In this document: positions 1 to 64,000 of the stretch, piece after piece
Layout of the letters: each line of letters starts with the position of its first letter
Numbering within the stretch: position 1 is the first letter of the stretch
Assembly: GCA_964016885.1 (NCBI GenBank)
Contig: CAXHJY010001394.1
Location: forward strand, 124,001 to 188,000
DNA length: 64,000 nucleotides
DNA from: Eledone cirrhosa
Lineage: Eukaryota
Reading direction: 5' to 3'
Translations under genes and position numbers: made by a program
Notes under the pieces: generated by a model
The model's input: only the letters and a program-made list of their open reading frames with translations
Told to the model about the DNA's origin: nothing
Database searches by the model: none

Positions 1-67
1 TGTGCATACAGGAGTTCCCATGGACAGCCAGTAATATGTAATAGCCTGCAGGATGATAATAAACAGA

Positions 68-120
68 AGAGGGTTAATTACAGAGCCCTGATAGAGGGTT
101 AATAACAGAGCCCTGATAGA
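68..120. repeat. 25-bp tandem duplication inside the RT QGS motif
   Basis: agagggttaattacagagccctgat followed by agagggttaataacagagccctgat; present in all six units. Confidence 0.9.
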
Positions 121-807
121 CTTGTTCACTCAACTCCTCACTATAGCCATCATTACTTTTAACCTTACTGACTGCTCCTCCATACATGGCTTTTACTGCT
201 CTCACAAGCCACTCATATACCCCTAGTTTTCTAAGTTATACATCAGATTATGGAAGGGGGAAGTCTCACAGAAGCTCTCTCTGGGTCAACAAATGCCAAG
301 TAGAGGGGCTTATTTTAGCTAGGTACTACTCTTGCAGTTGCCACACAAGGAAGAGGACATCAGTGGTACTTTTACCTGGCACAAATCCAAACTTCATCTC
401 ATCTAGGTTAACTTGGTCCCTAATCAGCTGTGTTATAAATCTAACACCTTCATGAAGTGGTCCATCTAATATTTCTATAGTTTTCTAGCTCTAGTACATC
501 TCCTTTGCCCTTGTAGCAGTTGATGATGATGATACTACACCATTTATTTGGTATGACACCATTTTGTATTACATGCTGTACGATACCAGTGGTTAAGATG
601 TGACCCACCACCCCAGATACTTTCAGTATCTCAGCAACTATCACCAATGGACAAGATACTTTCTCTGTCTTCATATCCTTAATTACCTTACTACACTACT
701 GCTTACTTGTATGGCTGGACCCTCTGTTGGGCTCACTTTCCGTAGACTATCTTCCTCCCATGCATTCTCCTCATTCAGTAATCTTTCATAAAGGCATTTC
801 CATGTTA

Positions 808-1003
808 CAAAGGTTGGCTGAAAAGTTCATAGACTATCAATGATAGCATGATGCTAGAGCTGTGAAATCTTGCCTGCATTAATTTCAACTCTTCTTATTA
901 ATAACTGCATTGTTTCCTTCCAGGGACTATGTTGAAAAATAAACCTCATTTGGTCATTCCATGAGTGTATCTTGGTCTGCCTATGAACTTTTCAGCTGAC
1001 CCT
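808..1003. mobile_element. Tc1/mariner-like MITE (~195 bp) inserted in the minus-strand LINE
   Basis: Imperfect TIRs aggttggctgaaaagttcatag ... ctatgaacttttcagctgaccct, with TA immediately 5' (806-807); interrupts LINE homology. Copies at 12223-12418, 26804-26999, 39801-39996, 51214-51409. Confidence 0.75.
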
Positions 1004-1717
1004 ATTCAGCATCAGTGAGCCCAAATGCCCCATTATCATCCTGGACACACTTTACCCCAACATCACAATTTGCCCTCACACACTGCCTCACAATCCTGAA
1101 CATCTCATGTATTTCATCCTCACATCATAAAACCAACTGAAATTATATATTCTCTGCTTCCCTCCTTGCAAAGAATACTTCTTGCCTAGCTTCCTGTAGT
1201 GTACCCTCCAGCTGCCTCCATTCTGCCATTATTCCATGCCTGTCTCTTGGCCTTAACTGTCTCATCTACCCTAGTGTTTCACCACCAAGATACTCTCCTC
1301 TCTGAAGCCCTGCTCCAGCCACAGATCTAGTTTGACACCTTCAGCAAAGGTTCTTTAAGGAACTCCCACTGTTCCCCTATATTGTATGTTTCTATTTGTT
1401 CTTCCTTACTGTTGTAAAGATCAAACAAAATATCTCTAAATTTGGAACTGGCTGAGGGGTCCTTTAACTTCCATATCCTTCTCCTCCAAGTTGCCCTCAG
1501 TCTTCAAGTTCATCTAAGTCTATGAAATCACTAACTACTGGGTTATGTTGGGAGGTGCATTCTTCCCCAGGGGGTGGGGATTGTGTGTTTACAAATGTCA
1601 ATATCTCATCTTCTGGTGAGGATAAAAATCTGACTGGCATGCTCCTCTGACCAATAGGTGTTGAAGTGGTTGTCGGGTAAACGTTAAGACCCTCTGATAT
1701 ACATATATATATATATA

Positions 1718-2831: not shown

Positions 2832-5800
2832 GGCCCTGTGCGTCGATCGTGGGCCGGCCGGATGTTGACGGATCGATGTGTAATTAGAAGTACATGTGCG
2901 GACACTCATTGGCTGTGCGTGGTATGCATTTCAGCAAGATATCTCCGTAACATCAAGAGTTATGGCTGTGGAGGCACACCTAGTCAAACGTAAACAAGCT
3001 CTGGAGCGTATACGCTTCGCGATTTTGTTTACGTTTGACTAGGTGTGCCTCCACAGCCACAACTCTTGATGTTACGGAGATATCTTGCTGAAATGCATAC
3101 CACGCACAGCCAATGAGTGTCCGCACATGTACTTCTAATTACACATCGATCCGTCAACATCCGGCCGGCCCACGATCGACGCACAGGGCCGGATGGCCCG
3201 TTTGCAGTGAATTTTCACCGGAATCGATCTGTAATTACTGGTACATGTGCGGACACACATTTGCTGTGTGTGGTGTGATTTTCACGAAAAACTGCCCATG
3301 CTAAATGAGGAAGCTGAAGTCCGCCGGCGAATGGTGTGCTTCGAAGAAAACTAATTCGAAAATGACCGTTTGCAGGCGGAGTAACCTTTTCGATCGTGGG
3401 CCAGCCGCCCGTGGTGGGATACATCTGTAATTACTGGTACATGTGCGGACACACATTTGCTGTGTGTGGTGTGATTTTCGAGAAAGACTGCCCATGCTAA
3501 ATGAGGAAGCTGAAGTCCGCCGGCGAATGGTGTGCTTCGAAGAAAACTAATTCGAAAATGACTATTTGCCGGCGGAATCACCTTTTCGGTCCTGGTCCGG
3601 CCGGATCTTGCCGGATCGATCGGAAATTTGTGGACCATGTTCGGAAGGCCATTGTGCATGTGTGGTGAAAAAAATTTGTGTCGAAATCTTCTCGGAAAAT
3701 AACGGATCGCCGGCGGAGATTGCCATTTCGATCGTGGGCCGGCCGGATCTTGTCGGATCGATTCGGACATATGTGCATCGTGTTCGCAAGGCCCTTGTCT
3801 ATGTGTGGTGTGATTTTCATAAAGAAATTCCGAAAAACCCAGTTTTAAATCTGATTTCGCCAAAGAATTTTGGCTATCAGATCGGGTTGAAAGGTATGGT
3901 TTCAGGTCGATCTGAAAGTCTAAAATGGAATTCACTCGGTTAGCTAACTTTTGATATATCGGAGATATCTTTCTGAAAATCACACCACACACTCCCAATG
4001 AGTGTCTGCACATGTACCAGTAATTACAGATGGATCCCACCACGGGCGGCCGGCCCACGATCGAAAAGGTTACTCCGAAGCACACCATTCGCCGGCGGAA
4101 TTCATTTAGCATGGGCAGTTTTTCTCGAAAATCACACCACACACAGCCAATGAGTGTCCGCACATGTACCAGTAATTACAGATGGATCCCACCACGGGCG
4201 GCTGGCCCACGATCGAAAAGGTTACTCCGCCTGCAAACGGTCATTTTCGAATTAGTTTTCTTCGAAGCACACCATTCGCCGGCGGACTTCAGCTTCCTCA
4301 TTTAGCATGGGCAGTTTTTCTCGAAAATCACACCACACACAGCAAATGTGTGTCCGCACATGTACCAGTAATTACAGATCGATTCCGGTGAAAATTCACT
4401 GAAAACGGGCCATTCTGCCCTGTGCGTCGATCGTGGGCCGGCCGGATGTTGACGGATCGATGTGTAATTAGAAGTACATGTGCGGACACTCATTGGCTGT
4501 GCGTGGTATGCATTTCAGCAAGATATCTCCGTAACATCAAGAGTTATGGCTGTGGAGGCACACCTAGTCAAACGTAAACAAGCTCTGGAGCGTATACGCT
4601 TCGCGATTTTGTTTACGTTTGACTAGGTGTGCCTCCACAGCCACAACTCTTGATGTTACGGAGATATCTTGCTGAAATGCATACCACGCACAGCCAATGA
4701 GTGTCCGCACATGTACTTCTAATTACACATCGATCCGTCAACATCCGGCCGGCCCACGATCGACGCACAGGGCCGGATGGCCCGTTTTCAGTGAATTTTC
4801 ACCGGAATCGATCTGTAATTACTGGTACATGTGCGGACACACATTTGCTGTGTGTGGTGTGATTTTCACGAAAAACTGCCCATGCTAAATGAGGAAGCTG
4901 AAGTCCGCCGGCGAATGGTGTGCTTCGAAGAAAACTAATTCGAAAATGACCGTTTGCAGGCGGAGTAACCTTTTCGATCGTGGGCCAGCCGCCCGTGGTG
5001 GGATACATCTGTAATTACTGGTACATGTGCGGACACACATTTGCTGTGTGTGGTGTGATTTTCGAGAAAGACTGCCCATGCTAAATGAGGAAGCTGAAGT
5101 CCGCCGGCGAATGGTGTGCTTCGAAGAAAACTAATTCGAAAATGACTATTTGCCGGCGGAATCACCTTTTCGGTCCTGGTCCGGCCGGATCTTGCCGGAT
5201 CGATCGGAAATTTGTGGACCATGTTCGGAAGGCCATTGTGCATGTGTGGTGAAAAAAATTTGTGTCGAAATCTTCTCGGAAAATAACGGATCGCCGGCGG
5301 AGATTGCTATTTCGATCGTGGGCCGGCCGGATCTTGTCGGATCGATTCGGACATATGTGCATCGTGTTCGCAAGGCCCTTGTCTATGTGTGGTGTGATTT
5401 TCATAAAGAAATTCCGAAAAACCCAGTTTTAAATCTGATTTCGCCAAAGAATTTTGGCTATCAGATCGGGTTGAAAGGTATGGTTTCAGGTCGATCTGAA
5501 AGTCTAAAATGGAATTCACTCGGTTAGCTAACTATTGATATATCGGAGATATCTTTCTGAAAATCACACCACACACTCCCAATGAGTGTCTGCACATGTC
5601 CCAGTAATTACAGATGGATCCCACCACGGGCGGCCGGCCCACGATCGAAAAGGTTACTCCGAAGCACACCATTCGCCGGCGGAATTCATTTAGCATGGGC
5701 AGTTTTTCTCGAAAATCACACCACACACAGCCAATCAGTGTCCGCACATGTACCAGTAATTACAGATGGATCCCACTACGGGCGGCTGGCCCACGATCGA

Positions 5801-5935
5801 AAAGGTTACTCCGCCTGCAAACGGTCATTTTCGAATTCGTTTTCTTCGAAGCACACCATTCGCCGGCGGACTTCAGCTGCCTCATTTAGCATGGGCAGCT
5901 TTTCTCGAAAATCACACCACACACAGCCAATGAGT
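2832..5935. repeat. Palindromic CpG-rich 1584-bp satellite block, unit 1 (about 2 copies)
   Basis: ORFs recur at +1584 (3113/4697) and the same peptides appear on both strands. Apex loops are at 2998-3024 and 4582-4608. Internal submonomer spacing is 196/152 bp (gtaattac at 3231, 3427, 4020, 4172, 4368). Confidence 0.97.
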
Positions 5936-5978
5936 TTAAAATACTCACCGTTTGATTTGGAAAAACTTAAAATGCTCA

Positions 5979-6010
5979 CATATATATGTGTATGTATTTA
6001 TCTATGCATG

Positions 6011-6056
<46 letters not shown>

Positions 6057-6552
6057 TGTATTTATCTATGTATTTATCTATATGCATGGATATATATATA
6101 TATATATATATTTATCTATGTATTTATCTATATGCATGGATATATATATATATATATATATATATGTATTTATCTATGCATGTATGAATATATAAAATAT
6201 ATATATATATATATGTGTGTATGTATTTATCTATGCATGTATGAATATATAAAATATATATATATATATATATGTATGTATTTATCTATGCATGTATATA
6301 TATATAAATATATACATAAATATATATATATATATATGTATTTATCTATGCATGTGTGCATACATATATATATATATATATGTATTTATCTATACATGTA
6401 TGTATATATATATATATACATATATAAGTATTTATCTATACATGTATGTATATATATATATACATATATATGTATTTATCTATACATGTATGTATATATA
6501 TATATATATATATATGTATATAAGTATTTATCTATACATGTATGTATATATA
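5979..6552. repeat. Compound (TA)n microsatellite/minisatellite punctuated by gtatttatctat(g/a)catg
   Basis: Direct reading. Copies at 20561-21134, 33558-34131, 44971-45544, 57968-58541. Confidence 0.97.
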
Positions 6553-6641
6553 AAATATTGTCATGTTTACAAAAATATTTTTCTAATATCGTGTTTAATA
6601 TTTTATATTGTCGTCTGCTTCTCTTCTCACGTGGTTACTAA

Positions 6642-7016
6642 CTCTCTCACCCTCTCTCTCTTTCCCCTCTCATACAACCCCTTCTTTCTCTTTCTTTCCC
6701 CTCTCACACAACCTCTTCTTTCTCTCTCTTTTTGCCAGTCCCTTCTCTCACTCTCTCTCCCTCTTCCTTTTTTTATCTCTTTCTTTCTGTCTCTGTTTCC
6801 CTCCTATAGACATTCTCTCTCTCTCTTTCTGCTCTCACTCAGCCTTCTCTCTCTTTCCCCTCTCACACAGTCTTCTCTCTCTCTCTTTCCCCTCTCACAC
6901 AGCATTCTCTCTCTCTCTCTCTCTCTTTCCCCTCTCACACAGCATTCTCTCTCTCTCTCTCTCTTTATTTCCCCTCTCACACAGCCTTCTCTCTCTATCT
7001 ATCTATCTCTCTCTCT
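6642..7016. repeat. Polypyrimidine (CT)n minisatellite punctuated by tttcccctctcacacagc
   Basis: Direct reading. Copies at 21224-21597, 34221-34594, 45634-46007, 58631-59004. Confidence 0.95.
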
Positions 7017-8014: not shown

Positions 8015-8840
8015 CCTTCAAGATGTGTATGACAAGAAAGAAGACGTTTTAGAGTCGTATGACATAGATGATAACTGGAAATTCTTACGTGACAACTTAC
8101 TGCAGGCTACTGAAGAAACTTGTGGCTGGAGCAGAGCTCCGACCAGACAGAGAGTGACCTGGTGGTGGGACAACACGGTAGATAAGGCCATTAGAGACAA
8201 AAGACTAGCATGGAACACTTGAAAAAATGGTGGGAGTAGAGACCGATACACAGCTGCTAAGAGAGAAGCTAGACGTCAGATGTACTTAGCACGCACGGAG
8301 GCTGAGAGTAGGAGGTTTGCCAATGTTCTGTGATGGGAAGATCAGAGGCGTGCGGTGTTCCACATTGCAAGGCATGGTGTCAGTGTAAATCAGGATGTTG
8401 TTGGAGATAAGTGTATCCGGAATGATGCCAGTGTACTTGGTGTCACGAATGATCAAAAAAAGGAGGCCTGGAAATATCATTATGAGAGGCTGATGAATTG
8501 TGGAGAATGAATGGGAGAGAGGGAAACTATCCCCAGTAGACCCAACAGAGGGACCAGCTATTGAGATTGGGGAATATAGGGTACAAGAGGCAATTAAGGA
8601 AATGAAGAATGGCAAGGCTACTGGACTCTAGGGGATAGTTGCTCAGATGCTGAAGGCATCAGAAGTAGGCACTAAACTGGTTACACACATCATCAATCAA
8701 GCTATATATGGTAGTGTCATACCCAAAGAATGGTGCAGCAGTATTCTCATAAATTGGTACAAAGGTAAAGGGGATGCTCTGGAGAGGAGCAATTATATGG
8801 GCACTTCAATATTTAATGATACAGGTGATAAAACAACAAC
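8015..8840 (+). mobile_element. Decayed RTE-clade LINE fragment (endonuclease-RT linker and RT N-terminus)
   Basis: Peptides WKFLRDNLLQATEETCGW..TWWWDNTVDKAIRDKRLAW, IKEMKNGKATG, IPKEWCSSILINWYKGKGDALERSNY. In-frame stops (e.g. TGA ending 8222) and frameshifts. Confidence 0.9.
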
Positions 8841-8989: not shown

Positions 8990-9658
8990 ATCACCACGTT
9001 GATGTAAAACTTGGTTTTTCACTTTGGGATAATACACGTATTTGCAACTTATTTATGTTTATTTACGTTGAGCGTAATCGATTTGTTTCCATATCTCCAC
9101 GCGTTTTATTTCATAGTCATAGTTATAAAATTAGAAAACTTTCTTTAAAAAAAACAAATTAACGCGGGTAACTACAAGATAACCTTGTTTTGTAATACTG
9201 GCAGACATTGAAGATTCTTTATGGATGGTTGATACTCAGCTGCCAGGAACACAGGATGTGGCAGAGGGTATAAGATTTGCCTGCTATTTCTAGCAACTTC
9301 AATGACCACATAATTGGTTTGTAATTTTGTTTTAAAGTGTAAGGGTTTACACAGCCATTTATGAATTTCTAAGAGATACGTTTACGATGAGATACACTTA
9401 TTAAAAATACTTTCATTGCATAGTTCCGTTTGTAAAGGCTTTAATTTACTGTACTACTCGGGAACCTTTTAATAACACACAGGATTAAGTCCATGTTTGT
9501 TCAACCAATTAATGGTATCTGCTGTAGTAGGGGTAACGATGGAAATATGGCGATGATTAACTCCACCCTGGGGTATAATGTAGAATTCATATTTTTCAAC
9601 TTGCCCATACGTGTATTATCCCAAAGTGAAAAACCAAGTTTTACATCAACGTGGTGAT
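8990..9658. mobile_element. Putative non-autonomous TIR element (MITE) with perfect 52-bp terminal inverted repeats
   Basis: 8990-9041 atcaccacgttgatgtaaaacttggtttttcactttgggataatacacgtat is the exact reverse complement of 9607-9658. Could be CAC..GTG termini with an AT target duplication. Confidence 0.7.
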
Positions 9659-9723
9659 TTCAAAGTTTATTTATTTACACATGGTGGTGGGGGGGGATAC
9701 GGAAATAAACGAAGGTTGACGAA

Positions 9724-9910: not shown

Positions 9911-12900
9911 TATCATCATCATCATCTTCAACATTATCATTTAACGTTCATTGTTATCACACCTGCATGGGTTATACAGGTTGTCACGTTATGAGACATG
10001 TCAGGTGTGGAGACCAGGTCTCATATGGATGTGTATTTTGGTTTGGTTTCTAAGGCTGGATGCCCTTCTTAACACGAAACACGTTACAATGTGGACTGCA
10101 CACTTTTGTATGACCACCTTACAGGATGAACTGGGTGTTTTTATTGTTGTAGCATCAACGAGGTGTGTGGGATATTTAGCAGGTGAGGGCAGGGCCTTAT
10201 GAATAGGAAGGGGTGATGAGAAGATTGGTGAAGACTAGTGTGTTCTCTACATGTTTGTTTTATTTCATTTTCAGCACATGGGAGGGGGGGGGGGTCTTCT
10301 ACATTACAGCATGACGCCAGAGATCTCGATCCTGTGACATTTCCATTGAGAGGTTTAATTGGGCAAGGCGAGCTTTTATTATTTCATCCCAAGCTTTCCT
10401 AGGTCTTCCCCTTTCATAGTTAACATCGACTTTGACAACCCTGCACCTTGTTATACAGCTGTCACCTTCCATATACATCACATGTCCAAACCACCACAAT
10501 CTCCTCTCCTCTACACTGCATCTGACCTCTCTTATACCTAGTTTCTCTCTCAGTTTATTAATGCTTGTTGTTCATGCACACTATTACACATCTATCAGAT
10601 CCTGTAAACTTCATTTCTTTCCAGTCTTTATAGGTCCTCTGAATATATTGCCCTGGTCTCACTTCAATGTAACATTGCTGTTTGTACACAGACTTCATAC
10701 AATCTGCCTTTCACTTTCAGGGGAAATCATTTTGTAGGCATCAGTAGTAGTAGCTCCCTAAACTGTTTCCATCCCATTCTCACTCAGGCTACTGTACCTT
10801 CAGAACACCCACCTCCACTGTTAATTTGGTTAATTAAGTTAACAGAAATTATGAACCGGTTTCTACAGAGCCTTCTGGACATTTAACCCTTTAGCATTTA
10901 AACCAGCCATACCTAGCCAGAATACTCTCACATCTTTCTGTTCAAACCAGCCATAACTGGCCACTCATACTGACGTTAAGGTATTGTTCTCAATATAAAT
11001 AATATCAAAATCTCATAGATTCGATATTATATGAGATAATTATGTAAGATAAAGCCTTTACCACAAAAATACAATAGTATATATAGAGTAATAAAAATGC
11101 TAAAGGGTAAAAGTAGCTTATTATTTTGTGAGCTCTTGCTACTTATTGCTCTTGTGCATCAAGAACATACACAGCTTACATTTTGTTGCTAATCTCACTG
11201 AGATCCAACTACATCTCTTGTTTATCCATAGTTTGGAATTTCTACCTACTCCTTTCCTTTAGAATGATCAAGGCCATTTTCTTGTGGGGATCTAGGCCCT
11301 GTTTTCCTTTCTATTTTGCCAAGTTATCTTACATCACTTTCATTCTAGACCATGCTTCCAGGTTTGGAATTTCTCCTCTAATTTTACCACAGATTAAGTG
11401 ACAAGGGTTCAATCATGTGCATACAGGAGTTCCCATGGACAGCCAGTAATATGTAATAGCCTGCAGGATGATAATAAACAGAAGAGGGTTAATTACAGAG
11501 CCCTGATAGAGGGTTAATAACAGAGCCCTGATAGACTTGTTCACTCAACTCCTCACTATAGCCATCATTACTTTTAACCTTACTGACTGCTCCTCCATAC
11601 ATGGCTTTTACTGCTCTCACAAGCCACTCATATACCCCTAGTTTTCTAAGTTATACACCAGATTATGGAAGGGGGAAGTCTCACAGAAGCTCTCTCTGGG
11701 TCAACAAATGCCAAGTAGAGGGGCTTATTTTAGCTAGGTACTACTCTTGCAGTTGCCACACAAGGAAGAGGACATCAGTGGTACTTTTACCTGGCACAAA
11801 TCCAAACTTCATCTCATCTAGGTTAACTTGGTCCCTAATCAGCTGTGTTATAAATCTAACACCTTCATGAAGTGGTCCATCTAATATTTCTATAGTTTTC
11901 TAGCTCTAGTACATCTCCTTTGCCCTTGTAGCAGTTGATGATGATGATACTACACCATTTATTTGGTATGACACCATTTTGTATTACATGCTGTACGATA
12001 CCAGTGGTTAAGATGTGACCCACCACCCCAGATACTTTCAGTATCTCAGCAACTATCACCAATGGACAAGATACTTTCTCTGTCTTCATATCCTTAATTA
12101 CCTTACTACACTACTGCTTACTTGTATGGCTGGACCCTCTGTTGGGCCCACTTTCCGTAGACTATCTTCCTCCCATGCATTCTCCTCATTCAGTAATCTT
12201 TCATAAAGGCATTTCCATGTTACAAAGGTTGGCTGAAAAGTTCATAGACTATCAATGATAGCATGATGCTAGAGCTGTGAAATCTTGCCTGCATTAATTT
12301 CAACTCTTCTTATTAATAACTGCATTGTTTCCTTCCAGGGACTATGTTGAAAAATAAACCTCATTTGGTCATTCCATGAGTGTATCTTGGTCTGCCTATG
12401 AACTTTTCAGCTGACCCTATTCAGCATCAGTGAGCCCAAATGCCCCATTATCATCCTGGACACACTTTACCCCAACATCACAATTTGCCCTCACACACTG
12501 CCTCACAATCCTGAACATCTCATGTATTTCATCCTCACATCATAAAACCAACTGAAATTATATATTCTCTGCTTCCCTCCTTGCAAAGAATACTTCTTGC
12601 CTAGCTTCCTGTAGTGTACCCTCCAGCTGCCTCCATTCTGCCATTATTCCATGCCTGTCTCTTGGCCTTAACTGTCTCATCTACCCTAGTGTTTCACCAC
12701 CAAGATACTCTCCTCTCTGAAGCCCTGCTCCAGCCACAGATCTAGTTTGACACCTTCAGCAAAGGTTCTTTAAGGAACTCCCACTGTTCCCCTATATTGT
12801 ATGTTTCTATTTGTTCTTCCTTACTGTTGTAAAGATCAAACAAAATATCTCTAAATTTGGAACTGGCTGAGGGGTCCTTTAACTTCCATATCCTTCTCCT

Positions 12901-13105: not shown

Positions 13106-13453
13106 CCTCTGATATACATATATATATATATACTAGCAGTGGTACCCGGCGTTGCACGGGATAACGTATTTCGGAACGCGGGCCGCCATCTTCCACTTCA
13201 GCCGGTCGCCCTAAAGTGTTGGCTATTCAGTCTACTTGAGGCCAGTTGGTGAGGGGGGGTAAAGCTTTCAGTGTGCTACTACCCTCACGGTCAAATAGAA
13301 AGGGAGAGGAAGAAAAGTCAGCGTTAATATCGTGCTACACGTTTGAAAGGTTGGATGACCTTAGAGTTCACCAGGGTGGGGGGTTCTAAAAGTATCTATC
13401 TTGGTATTTTATCTTAGAAGTAATCATTACAGAGTGTACTGGGTGTATTTTAG

Positions 13454-14245
13454 TGGGCAGTAATTCCATAAAGAACACAGTATAATCTGTGGACACAAGC
13501 CTTGCAGTGTGATTACAGGCAGGTTAATGGGAAAGATAGATTATATATGTGACATGATGTACATGAGAAGTGAGGACACAGACCACACATGAAATAGATT
13601 CCTACAACTGTCAGGGAGGCTCCCTAGAATTACAGATGACATATTTCAATATCTCGGTGATCAAGTTAGCAGTGGAGGAAGAATCTCTAAAAGTGTAATA
13701 CCCAGGATAAGGACAGGCTGGAAGAAGTTTAGAGTACTGTTCCATCTGTTGACAACAAAGGGCTTCTCTCTCAGAATGGAGGCTAGACTGCTTGATACTT
13801 ATGTGTGGTCTGCAATCTACACCCCAGCCATGCCCCTTCCACTACCACTCCTTAGCTATTTCTCTCCATTAATACTCCTCACATTTCAAGCAGTTTTCTC
13901 ATCTCAATGAAAGAAAAATATTGGGCTCAAGAGAAGTCTTCAGTTATGCCATGGTGTGGCAACCTCCCTAGGGTTGGGCAGAGTGTAAATGAGAGTGAAA
14001 TTAGGTATGAGAGGGATCATATGCAGTATACAAGAGAGTAGATTACATTGGTATGGTCATGTGATGGGTATAAAGGATGACAGCTGTATAAAAATGTGCT
14101 GGGCAATCAAAGTTGATGGAAGTTATGAAGGCGGAAGACCCAGGATGACCTGGGATGAGGTGATAAAAGATGACTTTGCACAATTGCAACTCTCAAAGAC
14201 AATGACACAGGATAGAGATCTTGAGATGTATGCAGCAATACAGAA
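13454..14245 (+). mobile_element. Copy of RTE C-terminal fragment
   Basis: Identical ORF at 13989. Confidence 0.88.
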
Positions 14246-17200
14246 GGCCCTGTGCGTCGATCGTGGGCCGGCCGGATGTTGACGGATCGATGTGTAATTA
14301 GAAGTACATGTGCGGACACTCATTGGCTGTGCGTGGTATGCATTTCAGCAAGATATCTCCGTAACATCAAGAGTTATGGCTGTGGAGGCACACCTAGTCA
14401 AACGTAAACAAGCTCTGGAGCGTATACGCTTCGCGATTTTGTTTACGTTTGACTAGGTGTGCCTCCACAGCCACAACTCTTGATGTTACGGAGATATCTT
14501 GCTGAAATGCATACCACGCACAGCCAATGAGTGTCCGCACATGTACTTCTAATTACACATCGATCCGTCAACATCCGGCCGGCCCACGATCGACGCACAG
14601 GGCCGGATGGCCCGTTTGCAGTGAATTTTCACCGGAATCGATCTGTAATTACTGGTACATGTGCGGACACACATTTGCTGTGTGTGGTGTGATTTTCACG
14701 AAAAACTGCCCATGCTAAATGAGGAAGCTGAAGTCCGCCGGCGAATGGTGTGCTTCGAAGAAAACTAATTCGAAAATGACCGTTTGCAGGCGGAGTAACC
14801 TTTTCGATCGTGGGCCAGCCGCCCGTGGTGGGATACATCTGTAATTACTGGTACATGTGCGGACACACATTTGCTGTGTGTGGTGTGATTTTCGAGAAAG
14901 ACTGCCCATGCTAAATGAGGAAGCTGAAGTCCGCCGGCGAATGGTGTGCTTCGAAGAAAACTAATTCGAAAATGACTATTTGCCGGCGGAATCACCTTTT
15001 CGGTCCTGGTCCGGCCGGATCTTGCCGGATCGATCGGAAATTTGTGGACCATGTTCGGAAGGCCATTGTGCATGTGTGGTGAAAAAAATTTGTGTCGAAA
15101 TCTTCTCGGAAAATAACGGATCGCCGGCGGAGATTGCCATTTCGATCGTGGGCCGGCCGGATCTTGTCGGATCGATTCGGACATATGTGCATCGTGTTCG
15201 CAAGGCCCTTGTCTATGTGTGGTGTGATTTTCATAAAGAAATTCCGAAAAACCCAGTTTTAAATCTGATTTCGCCAAAGAATTTTGGCTATCAGATCGGG
15301 TTGAAAGGTATGGTTTCAGGTCGATCTGAAAGTCTAAAATGGAATTCACTCGGTTAGCTAACTTTTGATATATCGGAGATATCTTTCTGAAAATCACACC
15401 ACACACTCCCAATGAGTGTCTGCACATGTACGAGTAATTACAGATGGATCCCACCACGGGCGGCCGGCCCACGATCGAAAAGGTTACTCCGAAGCACACC
15501 ATTCGCCGGCGGAATTCATTTAGCATGGGCAGTTTTTCTCGAAAATCACACCACACACAGCCAATGAGTGTCCGCACATGTACCAGTAATTACAGATGGA
15601 TCCCACCACGGGCGGCTGGCCCACGATCGAAAAGGTTACTCCGCCTGCAAACGGTCATTTTCGAATTAGTTTTCTTCGAAGCACACCATTCGCCGGCGGA
15701 CTTCAGCTTCCTCATTTAGCATGGGCAGTTTTTCTCGAAAATCACACCACACACAGCAAATGTGTGTCCGCACATGTACCAGTAATTACAGATCGATTCC
15801 GGTGAAAATTCACTGAAAACGGGCCATTCTGCCCTGTGCGTCGATCGTGGGCCGGCCGGATGTTGACGGATCGATGTGTAATTAGAAGTACATGTGCGGA
15901 CACTCATTGGCTGTGCGTGGTATGCATTTCAGCAAGATATCTCCGTAACATCAAGAGTTATGGCTGTGGAGGCACACCTAGTCAAACGTAAACAAGCTCT
16001 GGAGCGTATACGCTTCGCGATTTTGTTTACGTTTGACTAGGTGTGCCTCCACAGCCACAACTCTTGATGTTACGGAGATATCTTGCTGAAATGCATACCA
16101 CGCACAGCCAATGAGTGTCCGCACATGTACTTCTAATTACACATCGATCCGTCAACATCCGGCCGGCCCACGATCGACGCACAGGGCCGGATGGCCCGTT
16201 TTCAGTGAATTTTCACCGGAATCGATCTGTAATTACTGGTACATGTGCGGACACACATTTGCTGTGTGTGGTGTGATTTTCACGAAAAACTGCCCATGCT
16301 AAATGAGGAAGCTGAAGTCCGCCGGCGAATGGTGTGCTTCGAAGAAAACTAATTCGAAAATGACCGTTTGCAGGCGGAGTAACCTTTTCGATCGTGGGCC
16401 AGCCGCCCGTGGTGGGATACATCTGTAATTACTGGTACATGTGCGGACACACATTTGCTGTGTGTGGTGTGATTTTCGAGAAAGACTGCCCATGCTAAAT
16501 GAGGAAGCTGAAGTCCGCCGGCGAATGGTGTGCTTCGAAGAAAACTAATTCGAAAATGACTATTTGCCGGCGGAATCACCTTTTCGGTCCTGGTCCGGCC
16601 GGATCTTGCCGGATCGATCGGAAATTTGTGGACCATGTTCGGAAGGCCATTGTGCATGTGTGGTGAAAAAAATTTGTGTCGAAATCTTCTCGGAAAATAA
16701 CGGATCGCCGGCGGAGATTGCCATTTCGATCGTGGGCCGGCCGGATCTTGTCGGATCGATTCGGACATATGTGCATCGTGTTCGCAAGGCCCTTGTCTAT
16801 GTGTGGTGTGATTTTCATAAAGAAATTCCGAAAAACCCAGTTTTAAATCTGATTTCGCCAAAGAATTTTGGCTATCAGATCGGGTTGAAAGGTATGGTTT
16901 CAGGTCGATCTGAAAGTCTAAAATGGAATTCACTCGGTTAGCTAACTTTTGATATATCGGAGATATCTTTCTGAAAATCACACCACACACTCCCAATGAG
17001 TGTCTGCACATGTACCAGTAATTACAGATGGATCCCACCACGGGCGGCCGGCCCACGATCGAAAAGGTTACTCCGAAGCACACCATTCGCCGGCGGAATT
17101 CATTTAGCATGGGCAGTTTTTCTCGAAAATCACACCACACACAGCCAATGAGTGTCCGCACATGTACCAGTAATTACAGATGGATCCCACCACGGGCGGC

Positions 17201-44800: not shown

Positions 44801-44927
44801 CTCCGCCTGCAAACGGTCATTTTCGAATTCGTTTTCTTCGAAGCACACCATTCGCCGGCGGACTTCAGCTGCCTCATTTAGCATGGGCAGCTTTTCTCGA
44901 AAATCACACCACACACAGCCAATGAGT
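41824..44927. repeat. Palindromic 1584-bp satellite block, unit 4 (about 2 copies)
   Basis: ORF starts 42105, 43689. Confidence 0.97.
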
Positions 44928-53236: not shown

Positions 53237-56200
53237 GGCCCTGTGCGTCGATCGTGGGCCGGCCGGATGTTGACGGATCGATGTGTAATTAGAAGTACAT
53301 GTGCGGACACTCATTGGCTGTGCGTGGTATGCATTTCAGCAAGATATCTCCGTAACATCAAGAGTTATGGCTGTGGAGGCACACCTAGTCAAACGTAAAC
53401 AAGCTCTGGAGCGTATACGCTTCGCGATTTTGTTTACGTTTGACTAGGTGTGCCTCCACAGCCACAACTCTTGATGTTACGGAGATATCTTGCTGAAATG
53501 CATACCACGCACAGCCAATGAGTGTCCGCACATGTACTTCTAATTACACATCGATCCGTCAACATCCGGCCGGCCCACGATCGACGCACAGGGCCGGATG
53601 GCCCGTTTGCAGTGAATTTTCACCGGAATCGATCTGTAATTACTGGTACATGTGCGGACACACATTTGCTGTGTGTGGTGTGATTTTCACGAAAAACTGC
53701 CCATGCTAAATGAGGAAGCTGAAGTCCGCCGGCGAATGGTGTGCTTCGAAGAAAACTAATTCGAAAATGACCGTTTGCAGGCGGAGTAACCTTTTCGATC
53801 GTGGGCCAGCCGCCCGTGGTGGGATACATCTGTAATTACTGGTACATGTGCGGACACACATTTGCTGTGTGTGGTGTGATTTTCGAGAAAGACTGCCCAT
53901 GCTAAATGAGGAAGCTGAAGTCCGCCGGCGAATGGTGTGCTTCGAAGAAAACTAATTCGAAAATGACTATTTGCCGGCGGAATCACCTTTTCGGTCCTGG
54001 TCCGGCCGGATCTTGCCGGATCGATCGGAAATTTGTGGACCATGTTCGGAAGGCCATTGTGCATGTGTGGTGAAAAAAATTTGTGTCGAAATCTTCTCGG
54101 AAAATAACGGATCGCCGGCGGAGATTGCCATTTCGATCGTGGGCCGGCCGGATCTTGTCGGATCGATTCGGACATATGTGCATCGTGTTCGCAAGGCCCT
54201 TGTCTATGTGTGGTGTGATTTTCATAAAGAAATTCCGAAAAACCCAGTTTTAAATCTGATTTCGCCAAAGAATTTTGGCTATCAGATCGGGTTGAAAGGT
54301 ATGGTTTCAGGTCGATCTGAAAGTCTAAAATGGAATTCACTCGGTTAGCTAACTTTTGATATATCGGAGATATCTTTCTGAAAATCACACCACACACTCC
54401 CAATGAGTGTCTGCACATGTACCAGTAATTACAGATGGATCCCACCACGGGCGGCCGGCCCACGATCGAAAAGGTTACTCCGAAGCACACCATTCGCCGG
54501 CGGAATTCATTTAGCATGGGCAGTTTTTCTCGAAAATCACACCACACACAGCCAATGAGTGTCCGCACATGTACCAGTAATTACAGATGGATCCCACCAC
54601 GGGCGGCTGGCCCACGATCGAAAAGGTTACTCCGCCTGCAAACGGTCATTTTCGAATTAGTTTTCTTCGAAGCACACCATTCGCCGGCGGACTTCAGCTT
54701 CCTCATTTAGCATGGGCAGTTTTTCTCGAAAATCACACCACACACAGCAAATGTGTGTCCGCACATGTACCAGTAATTACAGATCGATTCCGGTGAAAAT
54801 TCACTGAAAACGGGCCATTCTGCCCTGTGCGTCGATCGTGGGCCGGCCGGATGTTGACGGATCGATGTGTAATTAGAAGTACATGTGCGGACACTCATTG
54901 GCTGTGCGTGGTATGCATTTCAGCAAGATATCTCCGTAACATCAAGAGTTATGGCTGTGGAGGCACACCTAGTCAAACGTAAACAAGCTCTGGAGCGTAT
55001 ACGCTTCGCGATTTTGTTTACGTTTGACTAGGTGTGCCTCCACAGCCACAACTCTTGATGTTACGGAGATATCTTGCTGAAATGCATACCACGCACAGCC
55101 AATGAGTGTCCGCACATGTACTTCTAATTACACATCGATCCGTCAACATCCGGCCGGCCCACGATCGACGCACAGGGCCGGATGGCCCGTTTTCAGTGAA
55201 TTTTCACCGGAATCGATCTGTAATTACTGGTACATGTGCGGACACACATTTGCTGTGTGTGGTGTGATTTTCACGAAAAACTGCCCATGCTAAATGAGGA
55301 AGCTGAAGTCCGCCGGCGAATGGTGTGCTTCGAAGAAAACTAATTCGAAAATGACCGTTTGCAGGCGGAGTAACCTTTTCGATCGTGGGCCAGCCGCCCG
55401 TGGTGGGATACATCTGTAATTACTGGTACATGTGCGGACACACATTTGCTGTGTGTGGTGTGATTTTCGAGAAAGACTGCCCATGCTAAATGAGGAAGCT
55501 GAAGTCCGCCGGCGAATGGTGTGCTTCGAAGAAAACTAATTCGAAAATGACTATTTGCCGGCGGAATCACCTTTTCGGTCCTGGTCCGGCCGGATCTTGC
55601 CGGATCGATCGGAAATTTGTGGACCATGTTCGGAAGGCCATTGTGCATGTGTGGTGAAAAAAATTTGTGTCGAAATCTTCTCGGAAAATAACGGATCGCC
55701 GGCGGAGATTGCCATTTCGATCGTGGGCCGGCCGGATCTTGTCGGATCGATTCGGACATATGTGCATCGTGTTCGCAAGGCCCTTGTCTATGTGTGGTGT
55801 GATTTTCATAAAGAAATTCCGAAAAACCCAGTTTTAAATCTGATTTCGCCAAAGAATTTTGGCTATCAGATCGGGTTGAAAGGTATGGTTTCAGGTCGAT
55901 CTGAAAGTCTAAAATGGAATTCACTCGGTTAGCTAACTTTTGATATATCGGAGATATCTTTCTGAAAATCACACCACACACTCCCAATGAGTGTCTGCAC
56001 ATGTACCAGTAATTACAGATGGATCCCACCACGGGCAGCCGGCCCACGATCGAAAAGGTTACTCCGAAGCACACCATTCGCCGGCGGAATTCATTTAGCA
56101 TGGGCAGTTTTTCTCGAAAATCACACCACACACAGCCAATGAGTGTCCGCACATGTACCAGTAATTACAGATGGATCCCACCACGGGCGGCTGGCCCACG

Positions 56201-57924
56201 ATCGAAAAGGTTACTCCGCCTGCAAACGGTCATTTTCGAATTAGTTTTCTTCGAAGCACACCATTCGCCGGCGGACTTCAGCTTCCTCATTTAGCATGGG
56301 CAGTTTTTCTCGAAAATCACACCACACACAGCAAATGTGTGTCCGCACATGTACCAGTAATTACAGATCGATTCCGGTGAAAATTCACTGAAAACGGGCC
56401 ATTCTGCCCTGTGCGTCGATCGTGGGCCGGCCGGATGTTGACGGATCGATGTGTAATTAGAAGTACATGTGCGGACACTCATTGGCTGTGCGTGGTATGC
56501 ATTTCAGCAAGATATCTCCGTAACATCAAGAGTTATGGCTGTGGAGGCACACCTAGTCAAACGTAAACAAGCTCTGGAGCGTATACGCTTCGCGATTTTG
56601 TTTACGTTTGACTAGGTGTGCCTCCACAGCCACAACTCTTGATGTTACGGAGATATCTTGCTGAAATGCATACCACGCACAGCCAATGAGTGTCCGCACA
56701 TGTACTTCTAATTACACATCGATCCGTCAACATCCGGCCGGCCCACGATCGACGCACAGGGCCGGATGGCCCGTTTTCAGTGAATTTTCACCGGAATCGA
56801 TCTGTAATTACTGGTACATGTGCGGACACACATTTGCTGTGTGTGGTGTGATTTTCACGAAAAACTGCCCATGCTAAATGAGGAAGCTGAAGTCCGCCGG
56901 CGAATGGTGTGCTTCGAAGAAAACTAATTCGAAAATGACCGTTTGCAGGCGGAGTAACCTTTTCGATCGTGGGCCAGCCGCCCGTGGTGGGATACATCTG
57001 TAATTACTGGTACATGTGCGGACACACATTTGCTGTGTGTGGTGTGATTTTCGAGAAAGACTGCCCATGCTAAATGAGGAAGCTGAAGTCCGCCGGCGAA
57101 TGGTGTGCTTCGAAGAAAACTAATTCGAAAATGACTATTTGCCGGCGGAATCACCTTTTCGGTCCTGGTCCGGCCGGATCTTGCCGGATCGATCGGAAAT
57201 TTGTGGACCATGTTCGGAAGGCCATTGTGCATGTGTGGTGAAAAAAATTTGTGTCGAAATCTTCTCGGAAAATAACGGATCGCCGGCGGAGATTGCCATT
57301 TCGATCGTGGGCCGGCCGGATCTTGTCGGATCGATTCGGACATATGTGCATCGTGTTCGCAAGGCCCTTGTCTATGTGTGGTGTGATTTTCATAAAGAAA
57401 TTCCGAAAAACCCAGTTTTAAATCTGATTTCGCCAAAGAATTTTGGCTATCAGATCGGGTTGAAAGGTATGGTTTCAGGTCGATCTGAAAGTCTAAAATG
57501 GAATTCACTCGGTTAGCTAACTATTGATATATCGGAGATATCTTTCTGAAAATCACACCACACACTCCCAATGAGTGTCTGCACATGTCCCAGTAATTAC
57601 AGATGGATCCCACCACGGGCGGCCGGCCCACGATCGAAAAGGTTACTCCGAAGCACACCATTCGCCGGCGGAATTCATTTAGCATGGGCAGTTTTTCTCG
57701 AAAATCACACCACACACAGCCAATCAGTGTCCGCACATGTACCAGTAATTACAGATGGATCCCACTACGGGCGGCTGGCCCACGATCGAAAAGGTTACTC
57801 CGCCTGCAAACGGTCATTTTCGAATTCGTTTTCTTCGAAGCACACCATTCGCCGGCGGACTTCAGCTGCCTCATTTAGCATGGGCAGCTTTTCTCGAAAA
57901 TCACACCACACACAGCCAATGAGT
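53237..57924. repeat. Palindromic 1584-bp satellite block, unit 5 (about 3 copies)
   Basis: ORF starts 53518, 55102, 56686. Confidence 0.97.
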
Positions 57925-57999: not shown

Positions 58000-58045
<46 letters not shown>

Positions 58046-60002: not shown

Positions 60003-60828
60003 CCTTCAAGATGTGTATGACAAGAAAGAAGACGTTTTAGAGTCGTATGACATAGATGATAACTGGAAATTCTTACGTGACAACTTACTGCAGGCTACTG
60101 AAGAAACTTGTGGCTGGAGCAGAGCTCCGACCAGACAGAGAGTGACCTGGTGGTGGGACAACACGGTAGATAAGGCCATTAGAGACAAAAGACTAGCATG
60201 GAACACTTGAAAAAATGGTGGGAGTAGAGACCGATACACAGCTGCTAAGAGAGAAGCTAGACGTCAGATGTACTTAGCACGCACGGAGGCTGAGAGTAGG
60301 AGGTTTGCCAATGTTCTGTGATGGGAAGATCAGAGGCGTGCGGTGTTCCACATTGCAAGGCATGGTGTCAGTGTAAATCAGGATGTTGTTGGAGATAAGT
60401 GTATCCGGAATGATGCCAGTGTACTTGGTGTCACGAATGATCAAAAAAAGGAGGCCTGGAAATATCATTATGAGAGGCTGATGAATTGTGGAGAATGAAT
60501 GGGAGAGAGGGAAACTATCCCCAGTAGACCCAACAGAGGGACCAGCTATTGAGATTGGGGAATATAGGGTACAAGAGGCAATTAAGGAAATGAAGAATGG
60601 CAAGGCTACTGGACTCTAGGGGATAGTTGCTCAGATGCTGAAGGCATCAGAAGTAGGCACTAAACTGGTTACACACATCATCAATCAAGCTATATATGGT
60701 AGTGTCATACCCAAAGAATGGTGCAGCAGTATTCTCATAAATTGGTACAAAGGTAAAGGGGATGCTCTGGAGAGGAGCAATTATATGGGCACTTCAATAT
60801 TTAATGATACAGGTGATAAAACAACAAC
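60003..60828 (+). mobile_element. Copy of RTE linker/RT N-terminal fragment
   Basis: Identical ORFs at 60013 and 60635. Confidence 0.9.
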
Positions 60829-60977
60829 TATAAGGTAAATAAGTCACCTTATGTTATTTACAAACATTAACGTCCACCTTAATATGAAATAATCACCATA
60901 AAAGAGGAAGCGAGGGCATCGGCTACCGGCACCCGGGCTGCTCTCTCATCCTGAGTGGGATCTTCCAGCGTTGATGC

Positions 60978-61646
60978 ATCACCACGTTGATGTAAAACTT
61001 GGTTTTTCACTTTGGGATAATACACGTATTTGCAACTTATTTATGTTTATTTACGTTGAGCGTAATCGATTTGTTTCCATATCTCCACGCGTTTTATTTC
61101 ATAGTCATAGTTATAAAATTAGAAAACTTTCTTTAAAAAAAACAAATTAACGCGGGTAACTACAAGATAACCTTGTTTTGTAATACTGGCAGACATTGAA
61201 GATTCTTTATGGATGGTTGATACTCAGCTGCCAGGAACACAGGATGTGGCAGAGGGTATAAGATTTGCCTGCTATTTCTAGCAACTTCAATGACCACATA
61301 ATTGGTTTGTAATTTTGTTTTAAAGTGTAAGGGTTTACACAGCCATTTATGAATTTCTAAGAGATACGTTTACGATGAGATACACTTATTAAAAATACTT
61401 TCATTGCATAGTTCCGTTTGTAAAGGCTTTAATTTACTGTACTACTCGGGAACCTTTTAATAACACACAGGATTAAGTCCATGTTTGTTCAACCAATTAA
61501 TGGTATCTGCTGTAGTAGGGGTAACGATGGAAATATGGCGATGATTAACTCCACCCTGGGGTATAATGTAGAATTCATATTTTTCAACTTGCCCATACGT
61601 GTATTATCCCAAAGTGAAAAACCAAGTTTTACATCAACGTGGTGAT
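60978..61646. mobile_element. Copy of 52-bp TIR element
   Basis: Same sequence as 8990-9658. Confidence 0.7.
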
Positions 61647-61898
61647 TTCAAAGTTTATTTATTTACACATGGTGGTGGGGGGGGATACGGAAATAAACGA
61701 AGGTTGACGAATGACGTCACATTCTTCTACTTTCACTTCTGACAGCCAATTCCGTTGTAGTGCCATATATAAACATGATGGTCACGGCTGGAACAACTTT
61801 AATTATAGGTCTGCTCAATCATACTAACATGGGATTTAAATTGAGCAAAGTTGGAGTTGTCTCCCTTGGTACTTTACTACGCTACGTTTGTTTATATA

Positions 61899-64000
61899 TA
61901 TCATCATCATCATCTTCAACATTATCATTTAACGTTCATTGTTATCACACCTGCATGGGTTATACAGGTTGTCACGTTATGAGACATGTCAGGTGTGGAG
62001 ACCAGGTCTCATATGGATGTGTATTTTGGTTTGGTTTCTAAGGCTGGATGCCCTTCTTAACACGAAACACGTTACAATGTGGACTGCACACTTTTGTATG
62101 ACCACCTTACAGGATGAACTGGGTGTTTTTATTGTTGTAGCATCAACGAGGTGTGTGGGATATTTAGCAGGTGAGGGCAGGGCCTTATGAATAGGAAGGG
62201 GTGATGAGAAGATTGGTGAAGACTAGTGTGTTCTCTACATGTTTGTTTTATTTCATTTTCAGCACATGGGAGGGGGGGGGGGTCTTCTACATTACAGCAT
62301 GACGCCAGAGATCTCGATCCTGTGACATTTCCATTGAGAGGTTTAATTGGGCAAGGCGAGCTTTTATTATTTCATCCCAAGCTTTCCTAGGTCTTCCCCT
62401 TTCATAGTTAACATCGACTTTGACAACCCTGCACCTTGTTATACAGCTGTCACCTTCCATATACATCACATGTCCAAACCACCACAATCTCCTCTCCTCT
62501 ACACTGCATCTGACCTCTCTTATACCTAGTTTCTCTCTCAGTTTATTAATGCTTGTTGTTCATGCACACTATTACACATCTATCAGATCCTGTAAACTTC
62601 ATTTCTTTCCAGTCTTTATAGGTCCTCTGAATATATTGCCCTGGTCTCACTTCAATGTAACATTGCTGTTTGTACACAGACTTCATACAATCTGCCTTTC
62701 ACTTTCAGGGGAAATCATTTTGTAGGCATCAGTAGTAGTAGCTCCCTAAACTGTTTCCATCCCATTCTCACTCAGGCTACTGTACCTTCAGAACACCCAC
62801 CTCCACTGTTAATTTGGTTAATTAAGTTAACAGAAATTATGAACCGGTTTCTACAGAGCCTTCTGGACATTTAACCCTTTAGCATTTAAACCAGCCATAC
62901 CTAGCCAGAATACTCTCACATCTTTCTGTTCAAACCAGCCATAACTGGCCACTCATACTGACGTTAAGGTATTGTTCTCAATATAAATAATATCAAAATC
63001 TCATAGATTCGATATTATATGAGATAATTATGTAAGATAAAGCCTTTACCACAAAAATACAATAGTATATATAGAGTAATAAAAATGCTAAAGGGTAAAA
63101 GTAGCTTATTATTTTGTGAGCTCTTGCTACTTATTGCTCTTGTGCATCAAGAACATACACAGCTTACATTTTGTTGCTAATCTCACTGAGATCCAACTAC
63201 ATCTCTTGTTTATCCATAGTTTGGAATTTCTACCTACTCCTTTCCTTTAGAATGATCAAGGCCATTTTCTTGTGGGGATCTAGGCCCTGTTTTCCTTTCT
63301 ATTTTGCCAAGTTATCTTACATCACTTTCATTCTAGACCATGCTTCCAGGTTTGGAATTTCTCCTCTAATTTTACCACAGATTAAGTGACAAGGGTTCAA
63401 TCATGTGCATACAGGAGTTCCCATGGACAGCCAGTAATATGTAATAGCCTGCAGGATGATAATAAACAGAAGAGGGTTAATTACAGAGCCCTGATAGAGG
63501 GTTAATAACAGAGCCCTGATAGACTTGTTCACTCAACTCCTCACTATAGCCATCATTACTTTTAACCTTACTGACTGCTCCTCCATACATGGCTTTTACT
63601 GCTCTCACAAGCCACTCATATACCCCTAGTTTTCTAAGTTATACACCAGATTATGGAAGGGGGAAGTCTCACAGAAGCTCTCTCTGGGTCAACAAATGCC
63701 AAGTAGAGGGGCTTATTTTAGCTAGGTACTACTCTTGCAGTTGCCACACAAGGAAGAGGACATCAGTGGTACTTTTACCTGGCACAAATCCAAACTTCAT
63801 CTCATCTAGGTTAACTTGGTCCCTAATCAGCTGTGTTATAAATCTAACACCTTCATGAAGTGGTCCATCTAATATTTCTATAGTTTTCTAGCTCTAGTAC
63901 ATCTCCTTTGCCCTTGTAGCAGTTGATGATGATGATACTACACCATTTATTTGGTATGACACCATTTTGTATTACATGCTGTACGATACCAGTGGTTAAG
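61899..64000 (-). mobile_element. Copy of decayed minus-strand RTE LINE, cut by the window end
   Basis: Same ORF at 62287 and same flanking sequence. Confidence 0.9.

Follow-up and report, generated by a model that had tools for sequence, protein, structure and literature searches.

Palindromic satellite islands alternate with transposon-debris blocks in a homogenized tandem array of the octopus Eledone cirrhosa

What kind of locus is built from long, homogenized tandem units that carry no gene to account for their amplification? Arrays of rDNA, 5S, histone, and snRNA genes consist of homogenized 10-15-kb units whose length changes with the number of inner sub-repeats. The array described here, which fills the 64,000-nucleotide stretch of E. 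cirrhosa DNA that we analyzed (the window, positions 1 to 64000), resembles them in its homogenized unit and variable sub-repeat number, but unlike them it has no such gene that we could find. Palindromic satellite islands alternate head to tail with ~8.3-kb blocks of transposon debris throughout the window (Table 1). The original prediction of near-identical units in which a 1584-bp satellite is present 2, 4, 3, 2, and 3 times is borne out by the coordinates and by a block identity of 99.9 to 100%, as is the three-level nesting of monomer-like segments within the 1584-bp unit within block plus island. The 14 copies are spaced 1584 bp apart inside the islands, the last copy of every island being shortened to 1516 bp, and the macrosatellite periods are 11414, 14581, 12997, and 11413 bp. 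When six blocks were compared (two of them partial), five were identical across their overlaps and the remaining one, C1, had 6 differing sites; on a larger scale, positions 17415-39590 and 41825-64000 show 1 difference in 22,176 bases. Satellite makes up 34% of the array and other sequence 66%. The array continues past both window edges, its ends lie outside, and doubled telomeric hexamers, a mark of subtelomeric repeats, are absent from the window itself. We consider it probable, on the sequence, that this is a young composite macrosatellite in which the debris block and the palindromic island form one unit; it is likely heterochromatin free of genes, unequal recombination probably maintains its uniformity, and no selected function is apparent.

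Table 1 Features of the window and of its representative repeat units
Feature	Position	Strand	Details
Partial constant block C0	1..2832		Extends beyond window
Satellite island 1	2833..5932		2 copies: first-type and terminal-type
Older degenerate fold-back	3423..4379		72%; axis ~3901; forward monomers meet reverse monomers
Long fold-back (example)	4067..5132		Arms ~520 bp; 502/524 columns matched (95%); spans each copy-to-copy junction
Inner hairpin	4417..4773		165-bp arms, 1 mismatch; 27-base loop 4582-4608; opens all 14 copies
Terminal-copy edge segment	5534..5932		Unit positions 1118-1516; 8 variants in 5/5 terminal copies, 0/9 others
Constant block C1	5933..14246		8314 bp; its differences are private
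AT-rich compound microsatellite	5980..6552		574-bp AT tract identical in 5/5 copies
TC-rich minisatellite tract	6653..7016	+	
AT-rich segment	7030..8075		No protein or RNA family matches; CpG o/e 0.93 over 7030-7900
Broken non-LTR retrotransposon fragment	8076..8823	+	tblastn E 5e-61 to P0066
MITE-like element	8990..9658		~60-bp terminal inverted repeats, 95%
Broken RTE-type copy, ~2.5 kb	10212..12783	-	Collinear with P0066/P0002; split by two MITE-like insertions
MITE-like insertion	10882..11112		18-bp terminal inverted repeats; family very abundant in run X1
MITE-like insertion	12232..12411		16-bp terminal inverted repeats
Short hairpin then CTAG, next to AT run	13133..13160	-	Presumed Helitron-like 3' end
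3' part of broken RTE-type copy	13470..14246	+	End adjoins first satellite copy exactly at inner-hairpin base
Satellite island 2	14247..20514		4 copies; copy 2 of recombinant type
Constant block C2	20515..28827		8313 bp; majority type
Satellite island 3	28828..33511		3 copies; inferred parental arrangement
Constant block C3	33512..41824		8313 bp; no differences from C2
Satellite island 4	41825..44924		2 copies; leading copy of middle type
Constant block C4	44925..53237		8313 bp; no differences from C2
Satellite island 5	53238..57921		3 copies; copy types as in island 3
Partial constant block C5	57922..64000		Extends beyond window

The 1584-bp unit comprises a ~1070-bp fold-back (95%) and a spacer, and it resolves into 9 monomer-like segments of 142 to 200 bp, 5 in forward and 4 in reverse orientation, with pairwise identities of 47 to 98%. 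A 196-bp period is confined to a single pair of neighboring segments, so the predicted ~196-bp submonomers stand as related subunits but not as plain 196-bp repeats. Related subunits in both orientations that form a long inverted repeat are a feature that the unit shares with palindromic higher-order satellites of the TmSat2 type, a type otherwise characterized by large (peri)centromeric blocks on all chromosomes. The description of the satellite as dyad-rich likewise holds in part: one long fold-back (4067-5132) dominates, whereas the enrichment in short dyads (<10 bp) is modest, with a coverage of 0.178 vs 0.103 ± 0.024 in shuffles, 0 of 60 of which reach the observed value. For four sub-segments, 1, 10, 10, and 200 of 200 shuffles equaled or exceeded the observed short-dyad value, the youngest arm being without enrichment, and an RTE control was equaled or exceeded by 10 of 60 shuffles.

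The constant block is made of RTE-LINE and MITE debris, with retrotransposon-protein matches over 3589 of 8314 bp, three MITE-like elements, and two simple-repeat tracts, in agreement with its predicted nature as a transposon mosaic. The fragment at 8076..8823, which we take to be RTE-type, matches a protein (P0066) that carries RVT_1 and PHD; a protein search by word index gave no hit when the RTE fragment served as query. We also considered a Helitron spanning the island, given the 3'-like end at 13133-13160, and rejected it because no matching 5' end was seen beyond the island.

None of 122 reading frames of at least 36 aa reaches the Pfam cut-off, although short spliced exons may fall below this length; three matches fall below it at E 0.017-0.045, and ten longer frames have no Pfam matches. 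Three scans gave no match at an Rfam gathering score, the AT-rich miRNA-family matches in the microsatellite and seven weak ones elsewhere lying far below, and tRNA genes number zero. The unit therefore contains no recognizable gene by Pfam, Rfam, or tRNA thresholds, as had been proposed, and lacks the RNA or histone gene per unit that defines rDNA, 5S, snRNA, tRNA, and histone arrays. It is highly unlikely that a multigene array is nevertheless present, with an unrecognized gene at 7030-8075, either one of short spliced exons or a small non-coding RNA, and with the satellite in the enhancer role that spacers have in rDNA or snRNA arrays. The rDNA-like homogeneity, the variable inner sub-repeats, and the undepleted CpG of 7030-7900, which has no TE protein match, would suit such a gene, but no match reaches threshold and, in public sequencing run X1, depth over the left part of the block does not amount to half of that over its right part, the opposite of the outcome under selection on a gene there.

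Could unit number or order be a product of assembly, arising from fold-back chimeras or from reads of one or a few units placed again and again? A stretch of 22,176 bp that recurs with 1 difference, and microsatellite tracts without length variation, are what such an error might leave. Against it stand the recombinant island types, the diverged block C1, a contig of X3 that runs across the hairpin loop (14382-14468) and shows no differences, and exact contigs of the block in X1 at word depths of 2,071-5,740. The six X1 contigs listed at the high end have unscaled word depths from 4,844 to 5,740 and the two at the low end from 2,071 to 2,146; run X1 possibly derives from the very sample that was assembled. 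Such depths make it likely that the array extends far beyond five units. An artefact thus appears very improbable, and the array is truly high-copy rather than over-expanded: a collapsed array is more likely than an inflated one, and unit order within the window may be imperfect. Elsewhere, 20 runs under 18 labels contain part of 2700-4500, including 5 rows with a share below 0.2 (one labeled wastewater). Three of 12 rows from other-label runs with a share of at least 0.26 were examined, with listed pieces at depths of 2-8.5, and we read all three as trace host DNA. Parts of the block have no cover in X3, X6, and X10, to which we attach no weight, and the absence of RNA data sets among the listed runs speaks neither for nor against expression. 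The 1584-bp unit has no match among plasmids or phages, and a 21-base monomer motif has 0 matches in viral, prokaryote-genome, or metagenome contigs.

The array likely grows and shrinks through unequal recombination. For all three islands that depart from three copies, a single exchange with a 1584-bp shift is enough to derive them from the 3-copy type, with a different exchange interval for each (1216-2701, 1956-2799, and 0-371), a reading based on two biallelic sites and one edge marker; gene conversion could produce the same allele strings. The intervals do not point to a clustering of crossovers at the hairpin center above chance: the center falls inside two of the three, one of which spans 94% of a unit. 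The whole unit may have spread by exchange, break-induced copying, or rolling-circle copying; the inner islands fit single unequal exchanges in 3 of 3 cases.

From these observations we propose the following history. Monomers of ~140-200 bp would have undergone fold-back inversions to give the 1584-bp unit, whose alternating orientation is directly visible. Three such units would then have been joined to an old RTE copy at its end, where the junction is preserved, and the island with its 8.3-kb flank would have been amplified in tandem, as seen in the window and, judging from contig depth, probably well beyond it. Misaligned exchange between 1584-bp copies may subsequently have changed islands of three copies into islands of two or four, in keeping with the allele pattern. 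Long palindromes are known to stall replication forks and extrude cruciforms; by analogy, the near-perfect hairpins here may do the same, and the resulting breaks could sustain high turnover.

The same fold-back invites a distinctly doubtful interpretation in which the islands are hairpin-RNA genes, read-through would supply ADAR or the Dicer/Piwi pathways with ~520-bp stems, and the dose of these would be what maintains the array. As in endo-siRNA loci, a long inverted repeat able to fold is present, and its predicted RNA stem is very stable (z = -47.5), but DNA inversion alone suffices to give the stem. CpG is undepleted in the satellite (o/e 1.15 vs 0.06-0.35 in RTE debris), although retained CpGs fit youth as well as an unmethylated active element, and CCAAT-type words number 3 in 1584 bp vs 2 in 8313 bp. 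Internal copies differ from the unpaired terminal arm at six arm sites, and at 6 of 6 they match the partner arm, which could reflect selection on pairing. Conversely, the span common to the terminal copy retains 7 substitutions of older date, as well as a 9-bp indel, in all copies compared, and the arm mismatches show no one-strand bias to G-U pairs of the kind expected for endo-siRNA hairpins (2/13 on the + strand, 3/13 on the - strand, a small sample).

The composite macrosatellite that we favor has close architectural counterparts. Human composite repeats (TELO_Comp, LSAU-BETA, and ACRO_Comp) are tandem units of at least three repeat types whose copy number is attributed to unequal crossing over and not to retrotransposition of the unit, TELO_Comp contains an inner satellite array of variable length, and some arrays are near 100% identical (Hoyt et al., 10.1101/2021.07.12.451456). 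By the definition given there, the Eledone array has at least three repeat types (RTE-type fragments, MITE-like elements, simple repeats, and satellite) in a head-to-tail array of high identity, and the unequal-crossover origin described for composites would fit it. Both systems join transposable elements, simple repeats, and satellite in one tandem unit with a variable inner array; unlike in the human composites, the inner unit here measures 1584 bp and its diverged monomers form a ~1070-bp palindrome, and the host is a cephalopod, so the likeness is one of architecture with no homology implied. A second counterpart is found in beetles, where, according to PMC13081366, Tribolium madens TmSat2 and the T. 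brevicornis major satellite have palindrome arms of ~300 bp and ~470 bp and are putatively (peri)centromeric. They share with the present satellite a higher-order monomer of related subunits in opposite orientation that forms a large palindrome, and short arrays of few repeats that interrupt other DNA. Cichlid centromeres with inverted 'centroid' elements, as far as the text of PMC13652916 was available, also combine satellite in alternating orientation with TE-like sequence, in alternating satellite blocks and ~15-kb TE-like stretches. Their inverted elements occur as one pair per centromere, ~200 kb apart and tied to a methylation dip, whereas the array here is head-to-tail, has inversions every ~800 bp, and is known from sequence alone.

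These parallels bear on whether the array is functional centromere DNA, in which long dyads would form cruciforms or hairpins that favor CENP-A loading and retroelement debris would space them. Such a role is possible, because long intra-monomer palindromes occur in the putatively (peri)centromeric Tribolium satellites, and the ~520-bp arms exceed the ~470-bp arms that PMC13081366 ranks as the most prominent dyad on record inside a monomer; PMC13081366, however, states that satellite function is unverified. High copy number, homogeneity, ~200-bp monomers, and C-bands located mainly at centromeres in three octopods point in the same direction. Satellite bins in X1 are also deeper than the block, but cross-mapping and contig overlap inflate this excess, as does, possibly, GATC density (12.6 per kb in the satellite vs 1.9). 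Further against a centromere are the non-satellite majority of the array, the modest short-dyad enrichment that vanishes in the youngest arm, and, from the parts of Hoyt et al. consulted, the same architecture in gene-free human composites that are no centromere cores. The unit has 0 exact matches to a CENP-B-box-like word and one single-mismatch word per arm; the CENP-B box is not required outside mammals. On this evidence we regard a centromere function as unlikely. Equally unlikely is its fullest form, candidate octopus (peri)centromeric DNA that would be the first at the sequence level: a multi-megabase array with cruciform-competent palindromes, their ~520-bp arms among the longest known inside a satellite unit, every 1.6 kb in islands between fixed retroelement blocks, which would both drive turnover and mark the centromere.

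Overall, the best reading by analogy combines the composite macrosatellite architecture known from humans with a palindromic satellite like those of Tribolium; should the array be plain heterochromatin, it would illustrate a known class in well-resolved form. Our literature search returned no description of a cephalopod satellite or centromere sequence, although supplementary repeat libraries could contain this one, and the available portions of 10.1101/2022.06.24.497555, PMC13218726, and PMC12988792 hold nothing on this repeat. This high-copy homogenized family, with its unique loop and unique junctions, therefore offers a probe that could be put to immediate use in FISH and CENP-A mapping. 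The array also demonstrates that long near-perfect palindromes persist in tandem in an animal genome, and because its copy-number events can be read from a few variants, it lends itself naturally to testing whether array turnover is driven by palindromes and whether their arms convert each other.

The window holds an array that continues past both of its ends, with dominant k-mer offsets of 12997, 1584, 11413, and 14581 bp when it is compared with itself. The 1584-bp satellite unit occurs in 14 copies grouped into five islands, the terminal copy of every island ending at 1516 bp. Constant blocks of transposon debris lie between the islands, and five of the six (two of the six being partial) are identical over shared stretches, with six differing sites in the first complete block; a 574-bp AT tract is identical in all five of its copies.

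Islands, intervening blocks, and broken retrotransposon copies in the window, with the exchange intervals of the islands
Feature	Position	Strand	Copies or length	Exchange interval	Method
Island 1	starts 2833		2 copies	1216-2701	
Island 2	starts 14247		4 copies	1956-2799	
Island 3	starts 28828		3 copies		
Island 4	starts 41825		2 copies	0-371	
Island 5	starts 53238		3 copies		
Block, islands 1 to 2	5933-14246		8314 bp		
Block, islands 2 to 3			8313 bp		
Block, islands 3 to 4			8313 bp		
Block, islands 4 to 5			8313 bp		
Broken retrotransposon copy	8076-8823	+			tblastn
Broken retrotransposon copy, two interruptions	10212-12783	-			tblastn
Broken retrotransposon copy	13470-14246	+			tblastn

Proteins match 3589 of the 8314 bp of the block (tblastn, 150 proteins) in three broken retrotransposon copies, which we take to be of the RTE type; relatives of these fragments carry reverse transcriptase, endonuclease, and PHD domains. 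The best matches, to unnamed proteins, reach 51-52%; one named relative comes from Octopus vulgaris (43% over 67 aa), and the other named matches are plant proteins (36-43%). Together with the look of the element ends, these matches make an octopod host likely. Three MITE-like elements with terminal inverted repeats are also present. None of 122 reading frames (at least 36 aa, outside simple-repeat tracts) reached the Pfam cut-off, Rfam gave no match at gathering score, and ARAGORN reported 0 genes; short spliced exons may escape such scans. An array built on an unrecognised gene is very unlikely. At 7056-7080, within a CpG-undepleted segment, a presumably YY1-like word overlaps an ATG and is followed by a possible splice donor, with no exon found in support of it. 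The satellite has a CpG o/e of 1.15 and the retrotransposon debris values of 0.06-0.35; across 11400-14246 the RTE debris stands at 0.06 versus 0.83-0.93 in the younger DNA-element-like parts. This contrast in composition points to a long methylated past for the block, unlike the satellite. Methylation in octopus is concentrated in gene bodies in the available text of one report (PMC9476566), so the CpG-poor debris may derive from an old methylated region.

The plain series of ~196-bp submonomers that had been proposed does not describe the satellite unit; Tandem Repeats Finder gives about two 196-bp copies per unit. Cut at its orientation switches, the unit falls into five forward and four reverse segments, nine in all, each 142-200 bp long and pairwise 47-98% identical. 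Its main feature is a fold-back, a long inverted repeat spanning every junction between successive copies: the two halves of 4067-5132 pair at 95% (502 of 524 columns matched), and the 165-bp inner arms, with one differing site, enclose a 27-base loop. From this dominant feature and a second, older axis at ~3901 (72%), we infer that the unit arose as an inverted dimer, then amplified head to tail. Island starts (2833 and equivalents) coincide with the exact end of a near-perfect inner arm, directly on the end of an RTE copy, and the first copy of an island lacks the outer left arm. Loose ends at 14464 and 15703 in X1, a public sequencing run with contigs matching the array, join two monomer types directly, without the fold-back loop, so variants without the fold-back centre are present elsewhere in the X1 genome; these ends may point to an origin of the hairpin in a longer monomer that was not palindromic.

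The fold-back stem has z = -47.5 folded as RNA and -57.5 as DNA, yet a source of hairpin RNA is quite unlikely, the arm mismatches being without strand bias for G-U pairs (2/13 and 3/13). Short dyads cover 0.178 of the unit versus 0.103 ± 0.024 in shuffles, a modest enrichment; the observed value was reached by 1, 10, 10, and 200 of 200 shuffles in four unit segments and by 10 of 60 in an RTE control. No exact match to a CENP-B-box-like word occurs in the satellite unit. Cichlid centromeres have been linked to inverted satellite blocks (PMC13652916, available text), and octopod C-bands are described as centromeric, terminal, and interstitial (PMC6160780, available text); that the present array is centromere DNA, as the original prediction had suggested, is unlikely. 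The nested array, its island copy numbers, and the lack of a recognised gene at these thresholds stand from that prediction, the interpretation of which is supported in part; the plain 196-bp repeats do not, and the dyad symmetry lies chiefly in the one long fold-back.

Thirteen sites vary among the 14 unit copies. Eight of them (unit positions 1118-1512) are common to all five terminal copies and occur in none of the nine others, so the island edge behaves as though it belonged to the constant block. First and middle copies are told apart by sites 372 and 1216. Islands 3 and 5 carry the same three copy types, and islands 1, 2, and 4 are each derivable from this arrangement by one exchange shifted 1584 bp. 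The three distinct exchange intervals argue for independent events, though they are read from only two informative sites, and conversion could produce the same patterns. Where terminal and internal copies differ in the arms, the internal copy agrees with the partner arm at all six sites (1 in 64 if changes are equally likely on both lineages), which hints at arm-to-arm conversion within the fold-back. Counting against conversion, seven older substitutions and a 9-bp indel are kept in the same arm span. Their persistence makes a mutation cluster at the island edge a fair rival, as do five of the eight edge variants (5534-5932 and equivalents, 400 bp), which are changes to C on the + strand. The variants adjoin the junction with the AT tract, possibly the seat of such a cluster.

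Among the matches listed for X1 (59,620 records), which may be the assembled sample itself, six exact block contigs at 12389-14204 have word depths of 4,844-5,740 and two at 7346-8077 have 2,071-2,146. With five copies, such depths would call for roughly thousand-fold coverage of a genome with 1,381 million letters of contig sequence, which would make an array of tens to hundreds of units more likely. Read depth, proposed earlier as a check in which fewer units would indicate misassembly, favours more units than five, and an artefact is highly improbable. Cross-mapping and overlap, and possibly GATC density, raise the summed satellite depth in X1 (31,102 in the lowest bin, up to 533,358), which gives no copy number. 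Against X1 being the assembled sample, its dominant contigs show differences from the window at 7263, 7438, 7515, and 7562. The right part of the block (12389-14204) is ~2.5 times deeper in X1 than the left (7100-8100), and a contig of X6, a run labelled as another organism, departs from the window at 14249; related arrays may share the right part only or join it to another partner. In three runs with other labels, the listed pieces derive from both satellite and block, with depths of 2-8.5 and mostly 0-2 differences, a pattern expected when high-copy DNA is carried over in traces; a contig from one of these runs crosses the hairpin loop without change. A 22-bp duplication at 12083, present in the one contig that covers the site in X6 and likewise in X10 (also labelled otherwise) but not in the window or X1, hints that unit variants differ between individuals. 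Runs labelled with many different organisms, dated 2022 to 2025, contain the repeat, which could be used as a marker of library cross-contamination.

In the available text of Hoyt et al. (10.1101/2021.07.12.451456), composites are units of at least three repeat types arranged in tandem, one human example having a variable inner satellite array; the present array has this structure. Tribolium satellites have inverted arms of ~300 bp and ~470 bp, long dyads that the available text calls uncommon and unverified in function (PMC13081366), and macrosatellites and dyads have been reviewed (PMC8122249, available text). A literature search covering main texts and few subscription papers found no description of the 1584-bp repeat or of a cephalopod centromere sequence. 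The array is probably a young composite macrosatellite without selected function. A satellite family would have folded back into a palindromic unit, been captured together with flanking transposon debris, and been amplified in tandem; unequal exchange would then have resized the islands, and the palindromes would provide breaks. What is new is that a composite macrosatellite and a palindromic satellite unit of great length, each kind being known separately, occur together, in a clade for which the literature searched describes no centromeres.
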